DNA of 64,000 nt. Source: Acidimicrobiales bacterium (GTDB taxonomy: Bacteria; Actinomycetota; Acidimicrobiia; Acidimicrobiales; GCA-2861595). The stretch is from the NCBI GenBank assembly GCA_035689115.1, contig DASSMA010000058.1, forward strand, positions 2,573-66,572, in the 5' to 3' direction. Both the position numbers and the translations under genes were made by a program. Under the pieces are notes generated by a model. The model saw only the letters and a list, made by a program, of their open reading frames with translations. It was not told where the DNA came from and made no database searches. Of the stretch, positions 15,457-33,857 are shown piece after piece (position 1 is the first letter of the stretch; each line of letters starts with the position of its first letter).

Positions 15457-16487
15457 AGCCCGGGATCCACGTGCTCGTGGCCCGCCTCGACAACCAGGGC
15501 GACGTCCTGCTGGCCGGGCCGGCCGTCCGGGCGGCGGCGGCGGGTGCCGACCGGGTCACCTTTCTGTGCCGGCCCTCGTCGGAGCCGGTGGCCCGCATGC
15601 TGCCCGGTGTCGACGACGTGGTCACGTTCGAGGCGCCCTGGGTCCCGGCCGACCCGCCGCCGTGCGACTCGCCGGCCGTCCTCCGCCTGGTGGGCCGGCT
15701 GGCCTCCCTCGAGGTCGACGACGCCCTGGTGCTGACCTCGTACCACCAGTCGCCGCTGCCCCTCGCCCTGCTCCTCCGCATGGCGCGCGTCCGCACCGTG
15801 GCCGGTATCAGCGCCGACTACCCCGGGTCGCTGCTCGACGTGCGCCATGAGGTGGCCGAAGACCGCCACGAGGTCGAGCGCAACCTCTCGCTCGCCGCCA
15901 CCCTCGGCTACCGGCTCCCGGCCGGCGACGACGGGCGGCTGCGGATCGTGCGGCGCACGCCGGCCGTCCTCCCGCCCGACGTCCCCGAGAGCCCGTTCGT
16001 CGTGGTCCATCCCGGCGCGTCCGTACCGGCCAGGGCGTGGGCGCCGGAGCGGAATGCCGAACTGGTCCGGGCGCTCGCCGCCGCCGGGTGGCCCGTGGTG
16101 GTCACGGGGGGCGGCGGCGAGGCGCCCCTGTGCGCCGAGGTCGCCGGCGACGACGGCGTCGACCTCTCGGGGCGCACCGACGTGGGCGGCCTGGCCGACC
16201 TGCTGGCCCGGGCGGCCGCCGTGGTGGTCGGCAACACCGGTCCCGCCCACCTGGCGGCGGCGGTGGGGACGCCGGTGGTGAGCCTCTACGCGCCCACCGT
16301 CCCGGCCGTGCGGTGGCGGCCGTGGCGGGTGCCCCACGAGCTGCTCGGGCTCCAGGACATCGAGTGTGCCGGGTGCCGCAACCGGGTGTGCCCGTTGCCG
16401 CGGCAGACGTGCCTCGACGGTGTCCCCGTTCCTTCGGTGGTCGCCGCCGTCGACCGCCTGGCCGCAGGACGGCTGGTGCCGGCGTGA
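15453..16487 (+). CDS. GT9 glycosyltransferase (heptosyltransferase family)
   Basis: ATGA overlap with the upstream gene. Motifs: LVARLDNQGDVLLAGPAVRA, VVHPGASVPARAW, VVGNTGPAHLAAAVGTPVVSLYAPT. Confidence 0.85.
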   Translation: MKPGIHVLVARLDNQGDVLLAGPAVRAAAAGADRVTFLCRPSSEPVARMLPGVDDVVTFEAPWVPADPPPCDSPAVLRLVGRLASLEVDDALVLTSYHQSPLPLALLLRMARVRTVAGISADYPGSLLDVRHEVAEDRHEVERNLSLAATLGYRLPAGDDGRLRIVRRTPAVLPPDVPESPFVVVHPGASVPARAWAPERNAELVRALAAAGWPVVVTGGGGEAPLCAEVAGDDGVDLSGRTDVGGLADLLARAAAVVVGNTGPAHLAAAVGTPVVSLYAPTVPAVRWRPWRVPHELLGLQDIECAGCRNRVCPLPRQTCLDGVPVPSVVAAVDRLAAGRLVPA

Positions 16488-19214: not shown

Positions 19215-20587
19215 CCGGGCGCCTCACCGTGGCCGGCGACGTGCTGGTCGACCGCGACGTGGTGGGAGGGGTGCGGCGGGTGGCGCCCGACGCACCGGTG
19301 CCCGTGGTCGACGTGGCCTCCCGCACCACCCGGCCTGGCGGCGCCGGCCTGGCCGCCCTGCTGGCCGCCGCCGACGGCCGGCCCGTCACCCTCGTCACCG
19401 CCCTCGGGAGCGACGCCGCCGGCGCCGAGGTGGCCGCCCTCCTGGAGGACGCCGGGGTCGACGTGGTGGACCTGGGCCTGGCCGGGCCGACGCCGGAGAA
19501 GGTGCGGGCCGGGACCCCCGGCCATCCGATGCTGCGCCTCGACTACGGCGGGCCGCCGTCGCCGGTCGGGCCCCTCACCCCCGCCGCCCGGCGGGCCCTC
19601 GGCGGTGCCGCCGCCGTGCTGGTGGCCGACTACGGGCGCGGCGTGGCCGCCCATCCCGAGGTGCGCGCCGCCCTGGCGGCGCTGCCCGCCCGCCGGCCCG
19701 TGGTGTGGGACCCGCACCCGCGGGGACCGGCGCCGGTGGCCGGGGCCCGGCTGGCCACGCCCAACCGCGAGGAGGCCGGCGTGCCGCCCGGCGCCGGCCT
19801 GGCCGCCGTCACCGCCCGGGCCCGGGCCCTGGCCGAGCAGTGGTCGGCCGTGGGCGTGGCCGTCACCCTCGGGTCCCGCGGCGCGGTGCTGGTGGAGGGC
19901 GACGGGCCGCCCCTGGCCGTGCCCGCCCGGCCGGCGGCCGGCGACCCCTGCGGCGCCGGCGACCGCTTCGCCTCCCGCGCCGCCGGCCTGCTCGCCGACG
20001 GTGCCCTCCCCTCCGAGGCCGTCACCGGAGCGGTCGCCGCCGCCGCCGCCTTCGTGGCCTCCGGCGGCGCCGGCGGCGCCCTCCCGTCCGATCCACCCGC
20101 ACCCCGAGCCGGCGGGGACGGAGGCGTCGTCGACGCCCTCGCCCTCGTGGACGGGGTGCGGGCGGCCGGCGGCACGGTGGTGGCGGCCGGCGGGTGCTTC
20201 GACCTGCTCCACGCCGGCCACGTCGGCCTCCTGGAGGCGGCCCGGCGCCTGGGCGACTGCCTGGTGGTGTGCCTCAACTCCGACGACTCGGTGCGCCGGC
20301 TGAAGGGACCGGGCCGGCCCGTGCAGTCCGCCGCCGACCGGGCCCGGGTGGTGCTCGCCCTCGGCTGCGTCGACGCCGTCGCCGTGTTCGACGAGGACAC
20401 GCCCGAGGCGGTGCTGGCCCGGCTGCGGCCCCACGTGTTCGCCAAGGGCGGCGACTACGCCGGCGGCCGGCTCCCCGAGGCGGCGCTCCTGGCCGGCTGG
20501 GGCGGCCAGGCGGCCGTCCTGCCCTACCTGGAGGGCCGCTCCACCACCCGCCTGATCGAGGAGGCCAACGCCCATGCCCGCGGCTGA
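19211..20587 (+). CDS. hldE: bifunctional D-beta-D-heptose 7-phosphate kinase / heptose 1-phosphate adenylyltransferase
   Basis: GTGA overlap with the upstream gene. It has an N-terminal ribokinase-like domain (GDPCGAGDRF) and a C-terminal cytidylyltransferase domain (GCFDLLHAGHVGLLEAARRLGDCLVVCLNSD). Confidence 0.9.
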   Translation: MTGRLTVAGDVLVDRDVVGGVRRVAPDAPVPVVDVASRTTRPGGAGLAALLAAADGRPVTLVTALGSDAAGAEVAALLEDAGVDVVDLGLAGPTPEKVRAGTPGHPMLRLDYGGPPSPVGPLTPAARRALGGAAAVLVADYGRGVAAHPEVRAALAALPARRPVVWDPHPRGPAPVAGARLATPNREEAGVPPGAGLAAVTARARALAEQWSAVGVAVTLGSRGAVLVEGDGPPLAVPARPAAGDPCGAGDRFASRAAGLLADGALPSEAVTGAVAAAAAFVASGGAGGALPSDPPAPRAGGDGGVVDALALVDGVRAAGGTVVAAGGCFDLLHAGHVGLLEAARRLGDCLVVCLNSDDSVRRLKGPGRPVQSAADRARVVLALGCVDAVAVFDEDTPEAVLARLRPHVFAKGGDYAGGRLPEAALLAGWGGQAAVLPYLEGRSTTRLIEEANAHARG

Positions 20588-21269
20588 TCCCGGAACCGTG
20601 CTCGTCACCGGCGGCGCCTCCGGGCTCGGGGCGGCGGTCGTCCGCGCCGTCGTCGAGGCCGGCGGCCGGCCGCTGGTCGTCGACCTCCGCCCGCCCCAGG
20701 CCGCCGCCATCGACCACGAGCTGGCCGACCTGGGCGACGGCCGGGCGGCCGAGGCGGCGGTCCGGGCCCTCGCCGACCGGGCCGGCGGGCTCGACGCGGT
20801 GGTGACGGCGGCCGGCACCGACTCCTGCGGGCGCCTGGCCGAGGTGGACGCCGAGGCGTGGGAGCGCGTCGTCCGGGTGAACCTGCTCGGCACGGCCGCC
20901 GTGGTCCGGGCCGCCCTCCCGTTCCTTGAGACGTCGTCCGGGCGCATCGTCACGGTGGCCTCCACGCTCGGCCTCAAGCCCCTGTCCGACGCCAGCGCCT
21001 ACGCGGCGGGCAAGTTCGGCGTGGTGGGCTTCACCCGGGCCCTGATGCTCGAGCTGGGCGGCCGGGTGGGCGTCACCCTCCTCGTGCCCGGCGGGATGGA
21101 CACCGCCTTCTTCGACGGCCGCGACCCGAAGTACCGGCCCCCGGCCGACGCCAAGCTGAGCCGCCCCGAGGACGTGGCCGCCGCCGTGCTCTTCGCCCTG
21201 TGCCAACCGCCTGGCTGCGAGGTGCGCGAGCTGGTCGTCACGCCGTCGACGGAGCCCTCCTGGCCGTAG
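20574..21269 (+). CDS. classical short-chain dehydrogenase/reductase (SDR)
   Basis: VLVTGGASGLGAA Rossmann motif and YAAGKFG catalytic YxxxK. It overlaps hldE by 14 nt. Confidence 0.85.
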   Translation: MPAADPGTVLVTGGASGLGAAVVRAVVEAGGRPLVVDLRPPQAAAIDHELADLGDGRAAEAAVRALADRAGGLDAVVTAAGTDSCGRLAEVDAEAWERVVRVNLLGTAAVVRAALPFLETSSGRIVTVASTLGLKPLSDASAYAAGKFGVVGFTRALMLELGGRVGVTLLVPGGMDTAFFDGRDPKYRPPADAKLSRPEDVAAAVLFALCQPPGCEVRELVVTPSTEPSWP

Positions 21270-21273
21270 GTCA

Positions 21274-22257
21274 GTGGTGCGCCGGCAGCCCGTCCTCGTC
21301 GTCCTCCGGGCCCTCGGGCTCGGCGACCTGTGCACGGCCGTCCCCGCCCTGCGCGCCCTCGCCGACGCCTATCCCCGCCATCGCCGGGTGCTCCTCACCA
21401 CCGCCGGCGTCGCCCCCCTCGCCGCCGCCGCCGGCCTGGCCGACGAGGTCGTCACGACCGAGGACCCCCGATCCCGAGTACATAGCGTGCGGAAACCGCA
21501 CGCTATGTACTCGGGGTCGGTGGACGTGGCGGTGAACCTCCACGGCAAGGGCCCGGAGAGCCACCGGGCCCTGCTGGCGGCGGGGCCCCGCCGGCTCATC
21601 GCCTTCGGCACCGCCGGCGTGCCGGGGCCGGCGTGGCGCGCGGACGAGCACGAGGTGCACCGCTGGTGCCGGCTGCTGCGGGAGTCCGGCGTCCCCGCCG
21701 ATCCCGGCCGCCTCGACCTGGACCTGCCGGCGGCGCCCGTTCCGGACGGCGTGGCCGGCTCCACGGTGGTCCACCCCGGTGCCGCCTACCCGGCCAGGCG
21801 CTGGCCGGCGGCCCGGTGGGCGGCCGTGGCCCGGGCCGAGGCGTCCGCCGGGCGCGCCGTCGTCGTCACCGGCGGCGCCTCCGAGGCGGGCCTGGCCCGA
21901 GGCGTCGCCGCCGCCGCCGGCCTGCCGTCGTCCGCCGTCCTGGCCGGCGCCACAGGGGTGGTCGAGCTGGCGGCCGTGGTCGGCGCCGCCGGCCGGGTGG
22001 TGTGCGGCGACACCGGCGTCGCCCACCTGGCCACCGCCCTGCGCCGGCCGTCGGTCGTGCTGTTCGGTCCCGTCCCGCCCTCCTTGTGGGGACCGCCGCC
22101 CGACCGGCCGTGGCACACCGCACTGTGGGCCGGGCGCACCGGCGACCCCTGGGCGGCCAGTGTCGATGGGGGCCTGCTGGAGATCGGCGTCGACGACGTG
22201 CTGGCCGCCCTCGACGGCCTGCCCGCCGCCGAGCCGGTCGCGGCCGCGCCGGCATGA
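21274..22257 (+). CDS. second GT9 glycosyltransferase, carrying an in-frame palindromic insert
   Basis: Motifs: LVVLRALGLGDLCTAVPALRAL, DVAVNLHGKGPESH, VVHPGAAYPARRW, VVCGDTGVAHLATALRRPSVVLFGP. Residues PRSRVHSVRKPHAMYSGS are encoded by repeat A1. Confidence 0.8.
   Translation: MVRRQPVLVVLRALGLGDLCTAVPALRALADAYPRHRRVLLTTAGVAPLAAAAGLADEVVTTEDPRSRVHSVRKPHAMYSGSVDVAVNLHGKGPESHRALLAAGPRRLIAFGTAGVPGPAWRADEHEVHRWCRLLRESGVPADPGRLDLDLPAAPVPDGVAGSTVVHPGAAYPARRWPAARWAAVARAEASAGRAVVVTGGASEAGLARGVAAAAGLPSSAVLAGATGVVELAAVVGAAGRVVCGDTGVAHLATALRRPSVVLFGPVPPSLWGPPPDRPWHTALWAGRTGDPWAASVDGGLLEIGVDDVLAALDGLPAAEPVAAAPA
21468..21520. repeat. palindromic element, family A, copy 1 (inside the GT9 CDS)
   Basis: ccgatcccgagtacatagcgtgcgg-aaa-ccgcacgctatgtactcggggtcgg. 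It has 25 nt arms with one T:G position and a 3 nt loop. Confidence 0.9.
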
Positions 22258-22568
22258 CCGGGCCCTGGCGGTTCCCGTTCACCGTCATCGACGAGGCGGT
22301 GCACATCCTCGACTCGCTCGCCGAGCCGTGGGGGATCGAGATCGAGCTCGACCTGCCGGGGCCCGCCGGCTGCCCGCCCGCCGCACCGACCGCACCTGGA
22401 CCTGGGAGGTGGCGCCGGCGCGTGAGCTTAGGGGCGGAGGTGGTGGAGATGGACGGGCACCACAACGCCTGGATGGTGCTGCCCGGCGACTGGGCGGGCG
22501 CCCTGGACGAGGCCATCGGCCGGGTCCTGCGCTCGAACGCCACGGCCGGCGCCTTCCCGGGTCGCTAG
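22254..22568 (+). CDS. hypothetical protein, translationally coupled to GT9
   Basis: ATGA overlap with the upstream gene. Third-position GC is very high at both ends of the 104-codon ORF. I recognise no domain. Confidence 0.45.
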   Translation: MTGPWRFPFTVIDEAVHILDSLAEPWGIEIELDLPGPAGCPPAAPTAPGPGRWRRRVSLGAEVVEMDGHHNAWMVLPGDWAGALDEAIGRVLRSNATAGAFPGR

Positions 22569-31185: not shown

Positions 31186-31478
31186 CGGTCCCTGGGGAGG
31201 TGGTCGCCGGCGACGGCGAGGTGGAGCTGAACCCGGGCCGGGCGCGGGTGACGCTGGTGGTCGAGAACACCGGCGACCGGCCCGTGCAGGTGGGGTCCCA
31301 CTTCCACTTCGCCGACGTCAACGCCGCCCTGGCCTTCGACCGGGCGGCGGCCGACGGCATGCGCCTCGACGTCCCCGCCGGCACCGGCGTCCGCTTCGAG
31401 CCGGGCGTTTCCCGCGAGGTCACCCTCGTCGCCCTGGCCGGCGCCCGCTCCGTTCCCGGCCTCCAGCGGCGGGCCTGA
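31182..31478 (+). CDS. ureB: urease subunit beta
   Basis: GTGA overlap with ureA. Motif: PGEV...ELNPGR...[19 protein letters not shown]. Confidence 0.9.
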
Positions 31479-33181
31479 TGCGGATCGACCGCCGGCGCTA
31501 CGCCGAGCTGTACGGGCCCACGGTGGGCGACCGCGTGCGGCTGGCCGACACCGACCTGTGGATCAGCCCCACCGAGGACCGCACGGCGCCCGCCGGCCCG
31601 GGCGACGAGGTGGTGTTCGGCGGCGGCAAGGTGGTGCGGGAGTCGATGGGCCAGGCCCTCACGTCGGCCGTCGACCTGGTGATCACCAACGTGGTGGTGC
31701 TCGACCACTGGGGCGTGGTGAAGGCCGACGTGGGCGTGAAGGACGGTCGCATCACCGCCGTCGGCAAGGCCGGGAACCCCGACGTCATGGACGGCGTCGC
31801 GCCCGACCTGGTGGTGGGCCCGGAGACGGAGGTGCTGGCGGGGGAGGGGCGCATCCTCACCGCCGGCACCGTCGACTGCCACGTCCACCTCATCTGCCCC
31901 GGCGTGGTGGAGGCGGGCCTCGCCGCCGGCACCACCACGGTGGTCGGCGGCGGCACCGGGCCGGCGGAGGGCACCAAGGCCACCACCGTCACCCCCGGTG
32001 CGTTCTACCTGGCGAGGATGCTCGAGGCCCTCGACCCGTGGCCGGTCAACGTCGCCCTCCTCGGCAAGGGCAACACGGTGTCCCAGGAGGCGCTGGACGC
32101 CCAGGCCCGGGCCGGCGCCGCCGGCTTCAAGCTGCACGAGGACTGGGGCACCACGCCGGCCGCCATCGACGCCTGCCTCACCGCCTGCGACCGCCTCGGC
32201 CTGCAGGTGGCCATCCACACCGACACCCTCAACGAGGCCGGGTTCGTGGGCGACACGCTGGCCGCCATCGCCGGCCGGGGCATCCACGCCTACCACACCG
32301 AGGGTGCCGGCGGCGGCCACGCCCCCGACATCATCACCGTGGCCTCGCACCCCAACGTGCTGCCGTCGTCCACCAACCCGACCCGGCCGCACACGGTCAA
32401 CACCATCGACGAGCACCTCGACATGCTCATGGTGTGCCACCACCTCAACCCGAAGGTGGCCGAGGACGTGGCGTTCGCCGAGAGCCGCATCCGCCCGTCC
32501 ACCATCGCGGCCGAGGACTGGCTGCACGACATGGGCGCCATCTCCATGATCGGGTCCGACTCCCAGGCCATGGGCCGGGTGGGCGAGGTCGTGCTGCGCA
32601 CCTGGCAGACGGCCCACGTGATGAAGGCCCGCCGCGGCCCGCTGCCCGGCGAGCCGGTGGCCGGCGCCGACAACCTGCGGGCCCGCCGCTACGTGGCCAA
32701 GTACACCATCTGCCCGGCCGTGGCCCACGGCCTCGACGGCGAGGTCGGCTCGGTGGAGCCCGGCAAGCTGGCCGACCTGGTGCTGTGGGACCCCGCCTGG
32801 TTCGGCGTCCGCCCGCACGTGGTCGTGAAGGGCGGGATGATCGCCTGGGCGCCGATGGGCGACGCCAACGCGTCCATCCCCACGCCCCAGCCGGTGCTCT
32901 CCCGCCCCATGTTCGGCGCCACCACCGCCGGCGCCCTCTCGGTGTCCTGGGTGGCGCCGGCCGCCCTCGACGCCGGCCTGGGCGACCGCCTGGCCCTGCG
33001 CCGGCGCCTCCTCCCGGTGGGCGACACCCGCGCCGTCGGCAAGGCCCACCTGCCCGAGAACACCGCCACGCCGGCCATCGAGGTCGACCCCTCCACCTTC
33101 ACCGTCCGCATCGACGGCGTCGAGGTCGTCCCCGACCCCGTGGCGGTGCTCCCCATGGCCCAGCGCTATGCCCTCTTCTGA
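31478..33181 (+). CDS. ureC: urease subunit alpha
   Basis: 567 aa. Motifs: [27 protein letters not shown], and a C-terminus PMAQRYALF. Confidence 0.97.
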
Positions 33182-33182
33182 C

Positions 33183-33234
33183 CCGTCCCGAGTACATAGC
33201 GTGCGGAATCCGCACCCTATGTACTCGGGAACGG
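33183..33234. repeat. palindromic element, family A, copy 2
   Basis: ccgtcccgagtacatagcgtgcgg-aat-ccgcaccctatgtactcgggaacgg. The arms match copy 1 at 21468-21520. It starts 2 nt after the ureC stop. Confidence 0.9.
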
Positions 33235-33857
33235 CAGTCCTGCTCCTGTTGGGGGACGGGCGGTTCCCGGGCGGCGGGCATGCCCACTCGGGCGGGCTGG
33301 AGGCGGCGGTGGCCGAGGGACGGGTGACGGGCGCCAGCGGCCTGCGGGCCTTCCTGGAGGGGAAGCTCCACACCACCGGGGTCACCGACGCCTGGCTGGC
33401 GGCGGCCGCCTGCGCCGGCGCCGACCCGAGCCTCATGGAGGCGGAGTGCGAGGCCCGCTGCCCGTCGCCGGCGCTGCGGGCGGCCGGCCGGGCGCTCGGC
33501 CGGGGGCTGCGGCGGGCGGCGGCCCGGTCCTGGCCGGAGATCGCCGGCGTCGGCGTCGAGCAGCACCCGGTGGTGCTCGGCCTGGTGGCGCGGGCCGCCG
33601 GCCTGGCGCCGGCCGGCGCCGCCTCGCTGGCGGTGCACGGGATGCTGGCCGGCGGGGCCTCGGCCGCCGTGCGGCTCCTGCCCCTGGACATGGCCGACGC
33701 CATGGCGGTGGTGGCCGGGCTGGCGCCGGAGGCCGACGCGGTGGCGGCAGAGGCGGCGGCCCTTGCCCTGGAGGACGGGCCGGCCCGCTCGGCGCCGGTG
33801 CTGGAGCGGCGGGCCGAGGAGCACGCCCGCTGGGAGGTGCGGCTCTTTGCATCGTGA
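33219..33857 (+). CDS. ureF: urease accessory protein UreF
   Basis: [31 protein letters not shown] matches the usual UreF N-terminal length and motif. A longer in-frame ATG at 33168 overlaps the end of ureC. Confidence 0.85.

Follow-up and report, generated by a model that had tools for sequence, protein, structure and literature searches.

The 64,000-nucleotide (nt) stretch analysed here, referred to as the window, comes from an Acidimicrobiales bacterium (GenBank assembly GCA_035689115.1, contig DASSMA010000058.1), and it contains a long palindrome (21468..21520) within an open reading frame (ORF) for a family 9 glycosyltransferase (GT9; 21274..22257, + strand). From sequence comparisons, we found that this palindrome belongs to a previously undescribed dispersed hairpin repeat family of soil Actinomycetota. 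The palindrome in the GT9 gene is probably a rare intragenic copy of this family, which resembles the repetitive extragenic palindromes (REPs) of other bacteria, and it lies in frame in a linker that appears to tolerate it. The repeat family is new, whereas the phenomenon of in-frame palindromic repeats is already known in other bacteria; the GT9 copy would extend tolerated repeats of this kind in enzyme genes to uncultured high-GC Actinomycetota. The behaviour of the family, in which the box is frozen, the inner stem is rewritten and stop codons are captured, is a more interesting lead than the verdict on the GT9 copy as a REP-like element in a gene.

The palindrome and its reading frame in the GT9 gene

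The palindrome is composed of two 25-nt arms and a 3-nt AAA loop, and its stem contains 24 Watson-Crick pairs and one T·G pair (left ccgaTccc and right ggGgtcgg). The first-pass annotation of this DNA had described a 53-nt palindrome with perfect arms; the dimensions were confirmed, and the word "perfect" was slightly overstated because of the T·G pair. All pairs of the inner 20 bp of the stem are perfect. Within the palindrome, to which no strand is assigned, a 45-nt element unit, TCCC...GGGG (21472..21516, + strand), was delimited, the boundaries of which were inferred from a clean 45-nt insertion in another gene. The unit includes a left box, GAGTACATAG (21476..21485), which is invariant in the family, an inner stem-loop, CGTGCGG-AAA-CCGCACG (21486..21502), which is its lineage-specific part, and a right box, CTATGTACTC (21503..21512), all three likewise unstranded. 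A 20-mer from the arm occurred four times in the window, in both arms of two copies, and in none of 100 shuffled sequences. As RNA, the region was predicted to fold with an energy of -60.4 kcal/mol (z = -11), in agreement with the strong mRNA structure that had been expected of the stem.

The 327-residue product of ORF 21274-22257 was assigned to GT9 by its match to Pfam PF01075 (E = 1.9e-25), and the best Foldseek matches of its structural model were 3tov, 1psw (WaaF) and 2h1f (WaaC). As previously noted from the sequence, the palindrome is in frame and the ORF reads through it, with the translation ...TTEDPRSRVHSVRKPHAMYSGSVDVAVNLHG.... The 45-nt unit corresponds to codons S67-G81 (SRVHSVRKPHAMYSG) and is read in a phase, termed b, that yields the peptide SRVHS...AMYSG without a stop, so that the GT9 ORF remains open. 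In this phase, the TAG of the left box (21483-21485) is out of frame, and the ATG of the right box (21505-21507) is codon M78. Because the unit is 45 nt, or 15 codons, its insertion never shifts the reading frame; only one of the three phases contains a stop, which corresponds to a prior probability of about 2/3 for an open phase. The remainder of the gene is intact, with no frameshifts, all of the family-invariant residues present and a GC content at third codon positions (GC3) of 0.92.

The best GT9 homologues of the window protein are only 65-70% identical to it, and alignment with them revealed the segment to be an insertion, as the same peptide was absent from all 119 other homologues. 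The distance between the invariant residues G54 and A86 was 22-24 residues in 118 of the 120 homologues and 31 in the window protein, which places a net gain of +7 or +8 residues in the variable linker between β3 and β4; the first-pass annotation had likewise placed the segment in a variable linker, between the LGLGD and AVNLHGKG motifs. Since the element supplies 15 codons, approximately 7-8 native linker codons are missing. The annotation had further described an insert of 18 codons; extra linker residues are indeed present, but the element accounts for 15 codons (S67-G81) and the net gain is +8 instead of +18. Its view that the segment is a repeated element and not native coding sequence was upheld by the absence of the segment from the 119 homologues and by the presence of the element at more than 120 other loci.

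An AlphaFold (AF2) model of the protein, built on 28 sequences, had an overall predicted local distance difference test (pLDDT) score of 90.2 and a predicted template modelling (pTM) score of 0.90. Residues 61-80 formed the sole low-confidence stretch of the model, with pLDDT block means of 62 and 51 and values below 50 for residues 74-78. In the N-terminal Rossmann-like domain, the insert appeared as a poorly ordered segment between strand 58-61 and strand 83-88, which corresponds to the β3-β4 linker, in a surface loop. P0061, a GT9 homologue from a Nitriliruptorales metagenome-assembled genome (MAG) and the only other length outlier among the 120 homologues, carries an unrelated 8-residue insert (…EASGFHIVVGH…) at the equivalent linker position, indicating that this linker tolerates changes in length.

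The repeat family and its position relative to genes

Genomes were scanned with the half-site of the element, using one genome per species. The half-site was found as a palindrome on 18 contigs of a single Actinomycetota MAG, JAHWLA01, which contained at least 22 copies in the loci examined; approximately 19 of these 22 carry one common inner stem. The same scan revealed one copy in a Dermatophilaceae MAG and one degenerate copy in an Acidimicrobiales MAG, and lone half-sites in unrelated phyla were at the level expected by chance. In total, the genome loci contained 25 palindromic copies. A scan of soil metagenomes that demanded the inner stem of the window returned no matches, whereas a scan with the outer boxes only returned 101 contigs, and the genome loci and metagenome contigs together gave approximately 125 copies of common anatomy. 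This census, which had been proposed as a check on the first annotation, confirmed a multi-copy element located mostly at gene ends. A scan of viral contigs for the repeat yielded no matches, and Rfam, searched at gathering thresholds and at E <= 10, yielded only sub-threshold matches to microRNA-like hairpins. Text searches of the literature for the box found only unrelated primer matches, as did those for a fragment of the TRIT motif ("tuberculosis Rho-independent terminator", discussed below). A search of proteins for other in-frame copies with a synthetic 99-residue concatenation of peptides found no match at E <= 10, the query being uninformative. The repeat family so defined is widespread in soil; Rfam lacks it, and it was not found in the literature searched.

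The family has a precise anatomy, in which a unit of 15 codons combines an invariant box with an inner stem specific to the lineage. The unit is approximately 45-47 nt long and begins with 4-5 outer pairs, mostly GTCCC/GGGAC, GTCTC/GAGAC or GTTTC/GAAAC. These are followed by the invariant 10-bp box (GAGTACATAG/CTATGTACTC), the invariance of which is partly built into the search pattern, by a 7-bp inner stem that varies by lineage with its complementarity kept, and by a 3-nt loop of A/T (AAT, ATT, AAA or TTT). The box has a GC content of 40%, compared with 74.6% in the surrounding window. In an alignment of 121 copies, 84.6% of the cells were paired, and the covariation score was 0.246, compared with 0.116 in shuffled alignments (0/500 reached 0.246) and at most 0.09 with the pairing partners slid; each inner pair showed 20-64 double changes. 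A covariance model of the family, run over the window, detected only two copies (68-72 bits), and the next best match scored 13 bits.

Beyond +/-5 nt of the element, no sequence conservation was found across copies. An apparent extension of the pairing into these flanks was rejected because C-rich and G-rich composition explains it without position-specific pairing, and a similarity between the DNA upstream of the GT9 copy and the flanks of other copies was rejected as compositional only. No target-site duplication was detected, as direct repeats of 2-5 nt did not exceed the shuffled expectation at any of the boundary offsets 0 to 9. The copies are singletons, the nearest pairs being more than 700 nt apart, and housekeeping genes such as mdh, icd, ligD and ku occupy the DNA between paired copies.

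With respect to genes, a coding-like 3' end was found within 80 nt of 110 of the 124 copies, usually within 0-30 nt, and the classifiable contexts were 32 convergent, 22 tandem and 0 divergent. Approximately 90% of the copies either follow a stop codon by 0-30 nt or provide that stop with their own TAG. As many as 57-59 gene ends are a TAG within the 5' arm of the element, which gives a C-terminus of ...SST; the element's own TAG is the stop codon in approximately 40% of the adjacent gene ends. The TAG-ended genes that were checked (ThiE, LigD, ROK, TrpE-like and Lon-like) are genuine. Among the ORFs that enter the element, 59 end at the TAG and 1-3 read through, whereas random phase would give twice as many read-throughs as TAG stops. 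Read-through copies are therefore strongly depleted, and the survivors are probably tolerated ones. Intragenic copies make up about 2 of the 124 sites, and a screen of the contexts for copies flanked on either side by one and the same open coding frame retained only two, the one in GT9 and the one at a locus designated L088. A rule for annotation follows: in carrier genomes, many real genes have their end at this 45-nt unit, have their start inside it or run through it. The possibility that the elements systematically supply start codons was rejected, as the element ATG shares its frame with 15 of the 38 genes that follow, which is close to the chance rate.

No U-tract follows the hairpin: T does not exceed 28% at any position from +1 to +30, and the 3' flank is 40-60% G. 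A canonical intrinsic terminator was rejected on the basis of this missing U-tract and G-rich 3' flank, and the element is probably not one because mycobacterial RNA polymerase needs a U-tract, at least in the in vitro work reported in PMC3993855. Long U-less stem-loops are typical 3' structures of actinobacterial transcripts (PMC13613805), and the family offers a way to ask what recognises such structures in actinobacteria.

We also observed, at four loci (L060 8868-8914, L080, L091 and L111), that a convergent gene pair ends at the two TAGs of one element, one in each arm; as both stops lie inside the element, the whole intergenic space is its 17-nt inner stem-loop. From 6 to 30 nt outside all copies, the 5' side is C-rich and G-poor and the 3' side is G-rich (for example, 33155-33184 and 33232-33261 in the window). 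As this symmetry makes both approaching transcripts C-rich just ahead of the hairpin, it recalls Rho-loading sites, although the composition of C-terminal codons alone may explain it.

Orthologous copies and the weighing of explanations

The second in-frame copy, an older insertion, interrupts a conserved membrane-protein gene at locus L088, which lies in the synteny block ino1-PadR-DUF5318-X-PBP. The peptide ...QSRVHS-x6-AMYSG... was present in three homologues of this protein (75-81% identical), whereas 12 others lacked these 14 columns. The copies are located at L088 585-631 (minus strand), L144 1004-1048, L145 345-389 and L146 1968-2012, so that the element occupies one site and one phase (b) in four diverged genomes, and two orthologues (L147 and L148) show an empty site. 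Comparison with the empty sites revealed a clean insertion of 45 nt. In-frame copies can thus persist through speciation. Among the four orthologous copies, identity is 98.2% over the 28 outer nt (94.4% when third codon positions alone are counted), compared with 83.5% (69.7% at third positions) for the flanking coding DNA. In contrast, identity falls to 45.1% over the inner 17 nt, each version being nearly self-complementary.

A similar pattern was found at orthologous intergenic sites (L038 4658-4704 and L112 311-357; L038 1550-1596 and L115 1306-1352; L078 3209 and L128 937; L042 751 and L100 243). Their distal flanks are 88-100% identical, yet the inner stems are different and self-complementary, as in the case of CGTGCGG/CCGCACG and CCGACGG/CCGTCGG beside a right flank that is approximately 96% identical. 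The inner stem differs even between near-identical strains. The 10-25 nt adjoining the element are scrambled at orthologous sites, and the stop of the host gene has sometimes moved into the element's TAG; in L112, an 11-nt difference shifts the stop of an rpiB-like gene in this way. This pattern in the sequences suggests that the copies are homogenised, are re-inserted or undergo template switching from one arm to the other, and it does not resemble a simple process of copying and decay. It also means that the covariation described above is not proof of selection on RNA structure. The frozen box beside a rapidly swapped inner stem at orthologous loci makes the family a tractable case of short-hairpin homogenisation.

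We consider it probable, as stated at the outset, that the GT9 palindrome is an intragenic copy of the dispersed repeat. In this case, the element would have replaced approximately 7-8 codons of the variable β3-β4 linker, and the protein would tolerate the loop insertion. By analogy with REP/IS200-type elements, copies may be spread or renewed through a single-strand hairpin intermediate, leaving no target duplication. The reason for their retention at gene ends is presumably that actinobacterial transcripts normally have long U-less stem-loops as 3'-end structures. The hairpin of -60 kcal/mol in the GT9 gene probably lowers or modulates the expression of GT9 and of the ORF coupled to it.

Several observations weigh against this explanation. 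The net gain of +8 residues requires an accompanying deletion, and the databases contain no empty-site allele of this GT9 gene, the closest homologue being 70% identical. No mobilising enzyme was found, as no Y1/IS200/RAYT-like gene lies between paired copies, and a tblastn search with an IS200 TnpA sequence, a weak test, found no match in 738 kb of loci. Strand asymmetry was not significant (loop AAT in 20 and ATT in 18; G·U in 36 and A·C in 23), and a function at the RNA level is therefore not demonstrated. The conserved boxes, swapped inner stems and scrambled flanks of the orthologous loci fit conversion or repeated re-insertion better than copy-and-decay transposition. Lastly, the GT9 gene could be a recent pseudogene.

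This last point leads to the alternative that a recent insertion cripples GT9, leaving a silent pseudogene or hypomorph in which the hairpin stops transcription, triggers cleavage or stalls ribosomes, possibly with compensation by a paralogue. On this view, the frame would be open only because a 45-nt unit keeps it automatically and an open phase has a prior of about 2/3. The GT9 copy shows no decay, its 20-bp core being perfect, and so is compatible with a recent insertion; the linker has lost about 7-8 of its native codons; the family normally marks gene ends; and a GT9 paralogue is present at approximately 15861-16328. Nevertheless, we found this alternative to be unlikely, since the gene has kept all family-invariant residues, is free of frameshifts and has a GC3 of 0.92, and since the model has a confident fold around the insert. 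Moreover, the linker of P0061 tolerates an unrelated 8-residue insert, the in-frame membrane-protein copy has persisted in four genomes at 75-81% protein identity, and the strong depletion of read-through copies suggests that the surviving ones are tolerated.

A broader proposal, which we regard as distinctly doubtful, is that the box hairpins (GAGTACATAG) are more than selfish REPs and form a gene-end module maintained by the host and bound by a conserved actinobacterial hairpin-DNA or double-stranded RNA factor. Under this proposal, the box would be kept invariant even at synonymous sites inside genes, and the inner stem would be continually rewritten into the version proper to each genome, whether through conversion, through template switching from arm to arm or through re-insertion directed to the site. 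The TAG of the 5' arm would provide stops, and the ATG of the 3' arm would sometimes provide starts, for neighbouring genes; intragenic copies such as that of GT9 would be by-products that persist through speciation.

It is improbable that the GT9 hairpin has been exapted as an internal regulator, acting as a 3'-end or processing site that sets the expression of the upstream genes (hldE-like and short-chain dehydrogenase) relative to the downstream ones (GT9 and a small ORF). In favour of this role, the hairpin has very high stability, the genes of the operon have overlapping or abutting ends, and the orthologous intragenic boxes, at 94% identity compared with 70% for the flanks at third codon positions, indicate maintenance at the nucleotide level within coding DNA. 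However, the GT9 site is unique among the 120 homologues, so that there is no evidence of conservation for this locus, and the conservation of the boxes could equally reflect conversion from other copies. An assembly artefact, in which the repeated palindrome led a metagenome assembler to join or pad the contig, is highly improbable: the repeat has many copies and the window looks like a contig of the metagenome type, but a single GT9 gene supplies the correct halves on either side, collinear and in frame, and the in-frame copies of the other gene come from four independent assemblies. The notion of a chance palindrome in native coding sequence, or of an operator for a dimeric DNA-binding regulator, which has only the palindromic symmetry in its favour, was refuted by the census, in which more than 120 copies lay at the 3' ends of genes and no divergent (promoter) region contained one, in addition to an arm found in 0/100 shuffles, an insert absent from all homologues and a covarying spacer that is not expected of a duplex operator.

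Known repeat systems and neighbouring features of the window

The closest known systems are the REPs, which include families with GTAG and CGTC tags and, in several phyla, copies inside genes (Di Nocera et al. 2013, PMC3733652) as well as the REPs associated with REP-associated tyrosine transposases (RAYTs; PMC2817692). Like REPs, the element is a short, dispersed stem-loop repeat with many copies per genome (at least 22 in JAHWLA01 and two in the window), located in most cases no more than 20 nt from the 3' end of an ORF in a convergent or tandem arrangement and rarely between divergent genes, without a target duplication and with occasional in-frame copies inside known genes. Its 5' end, often (C)GTC, may be comparable to the terminal tetranucleotide (GTAG or CGTC) conserved in REPs: positions -5, -4 and -3 are G, T and C in 66%, 92% and 83% of the copies, respectively, and a C precedes them in 43%. 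There are nevertheless clear differences. The host phylum of the element, Actinomycetota, is unmentioned in the PMC3733652 survey. The CGTC-like tag of the element is symmetric, being present at both ends, and the element as a whole is fully symmetric. Its stem of 21-25 bp is nearly perfect, whereas the CGTC families have stems of 8-9 bp and others are imperfect palindromes of 20-40 nt, and it contains an invariant, AT-rich internal box of 10 bp and a variable inner stem. Its copies are singletons and do not form inverted doublets (REPINs/BIMEs), and a search for a repeat-flanked RAYT gene near the elements, a weak test, found none.

The Rickettsia palindromic elements (RPE) are reportedly inserted in frame inside protein genes, where they are said to encode an extra surface peptide. 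The element resembles them in its in-frame insertion into a host protein that remains readable, in GT9 and in the membrane-protein gene of four genomes. By description, RPE are set apart by their length of 100-150 bp, compared with 45-53 nt for our element unit, by the large share of their copies that are intragenic, compared with about 2 of 124 sites, and by their obligate intracellular α-proteobacterial hosts, compared with high-GC Actinomycetota. The mycobacterial interspersed repetitive units (MIRUs) are said to be tandem direct repeats of 46-101 bp. They are likewise actinobacterial repeats that fill tiny operon gaps and overlap the stop and start codons of their neighbours, but as tandem direct repeats they are not hairpins.

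The TRIT motif has been described only in Mycobacterium (Gardner et al. 2011, PMC3152330). By description, it is similar to the element in being actinobacterial, palindromic and bidirectional, with about 150 conserved copies per genome, and in clustering very narrowly around stop codons, where it often overlaps the end of the coding sequence, with no canonical U-tract logic. In contrast to the element, TRIT is reportedly restricted to Mycobacterium, and in-frame internal copies are not described for it. The first-pass annotation had named Rickettsia as the precedent for in-frame palindromes and knew of no described equivalent in high-GC actinobacteria. Such repeats also occur outside Rickettsia: PMC3733652 covers the in-frame repeats of Rickettsia and also intragenic REPs in several phyla, and the TRIT palindromes of Mycobacterium overlap stop codons (PMC3152330). 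Two other known classes were rejected: a miniature inverted-repeat transposable element (MITE), because no target-site duplication flanks the element, and an integron attC site, because the copies are dispersed beside housekeeping genes and do not form cassette arrays.

The GT9 gene belongs to an ADP-heptose operon on the + strand, the genes of which overlap or abut. The order is a gene for an HldE-like PfkB kinase plus cytidylyltransferase of ADP-heptose synthesis (19226..20587, with a putative start), a short-chain dehydrogenase gene directly upstream of GT9 (20574..21269), GT9, and a small ORF without a Pfam match (22254..22568). The ATG of the small ORF overlaps the GT9 stop (ATGA), an arrangement of the sequence that suggests translational coupling to GT9. 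A second GT9-like coding segment was found at approximately 15861-16328 in the same cluster, about 5 kb upstream, with 41% identity over 172 residues to the insert-bearing GT9.

The other copy of the element in the window (33185..33231, unstranded) has an AAT loop and one arm mismatch, and it lies between the stop of ureC (urease alpha; 31478..33181, + strand, TGA at 33179-33181), 3 nt upstream, and the start of ureF (33219..33857, + strand). The first-pass annotation had reported a second, intergenic copy here; the copy exists, but it overlaps the ureF start. The ureF frame is open through the copy from an ATG at 33168, and the ATG at 33219, inside the right arm of the element, is the likely start and gives a UreF N-terminus of normal length. 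The copy is therefore not simply intergenic, and its hairpin would bury the ureF start.

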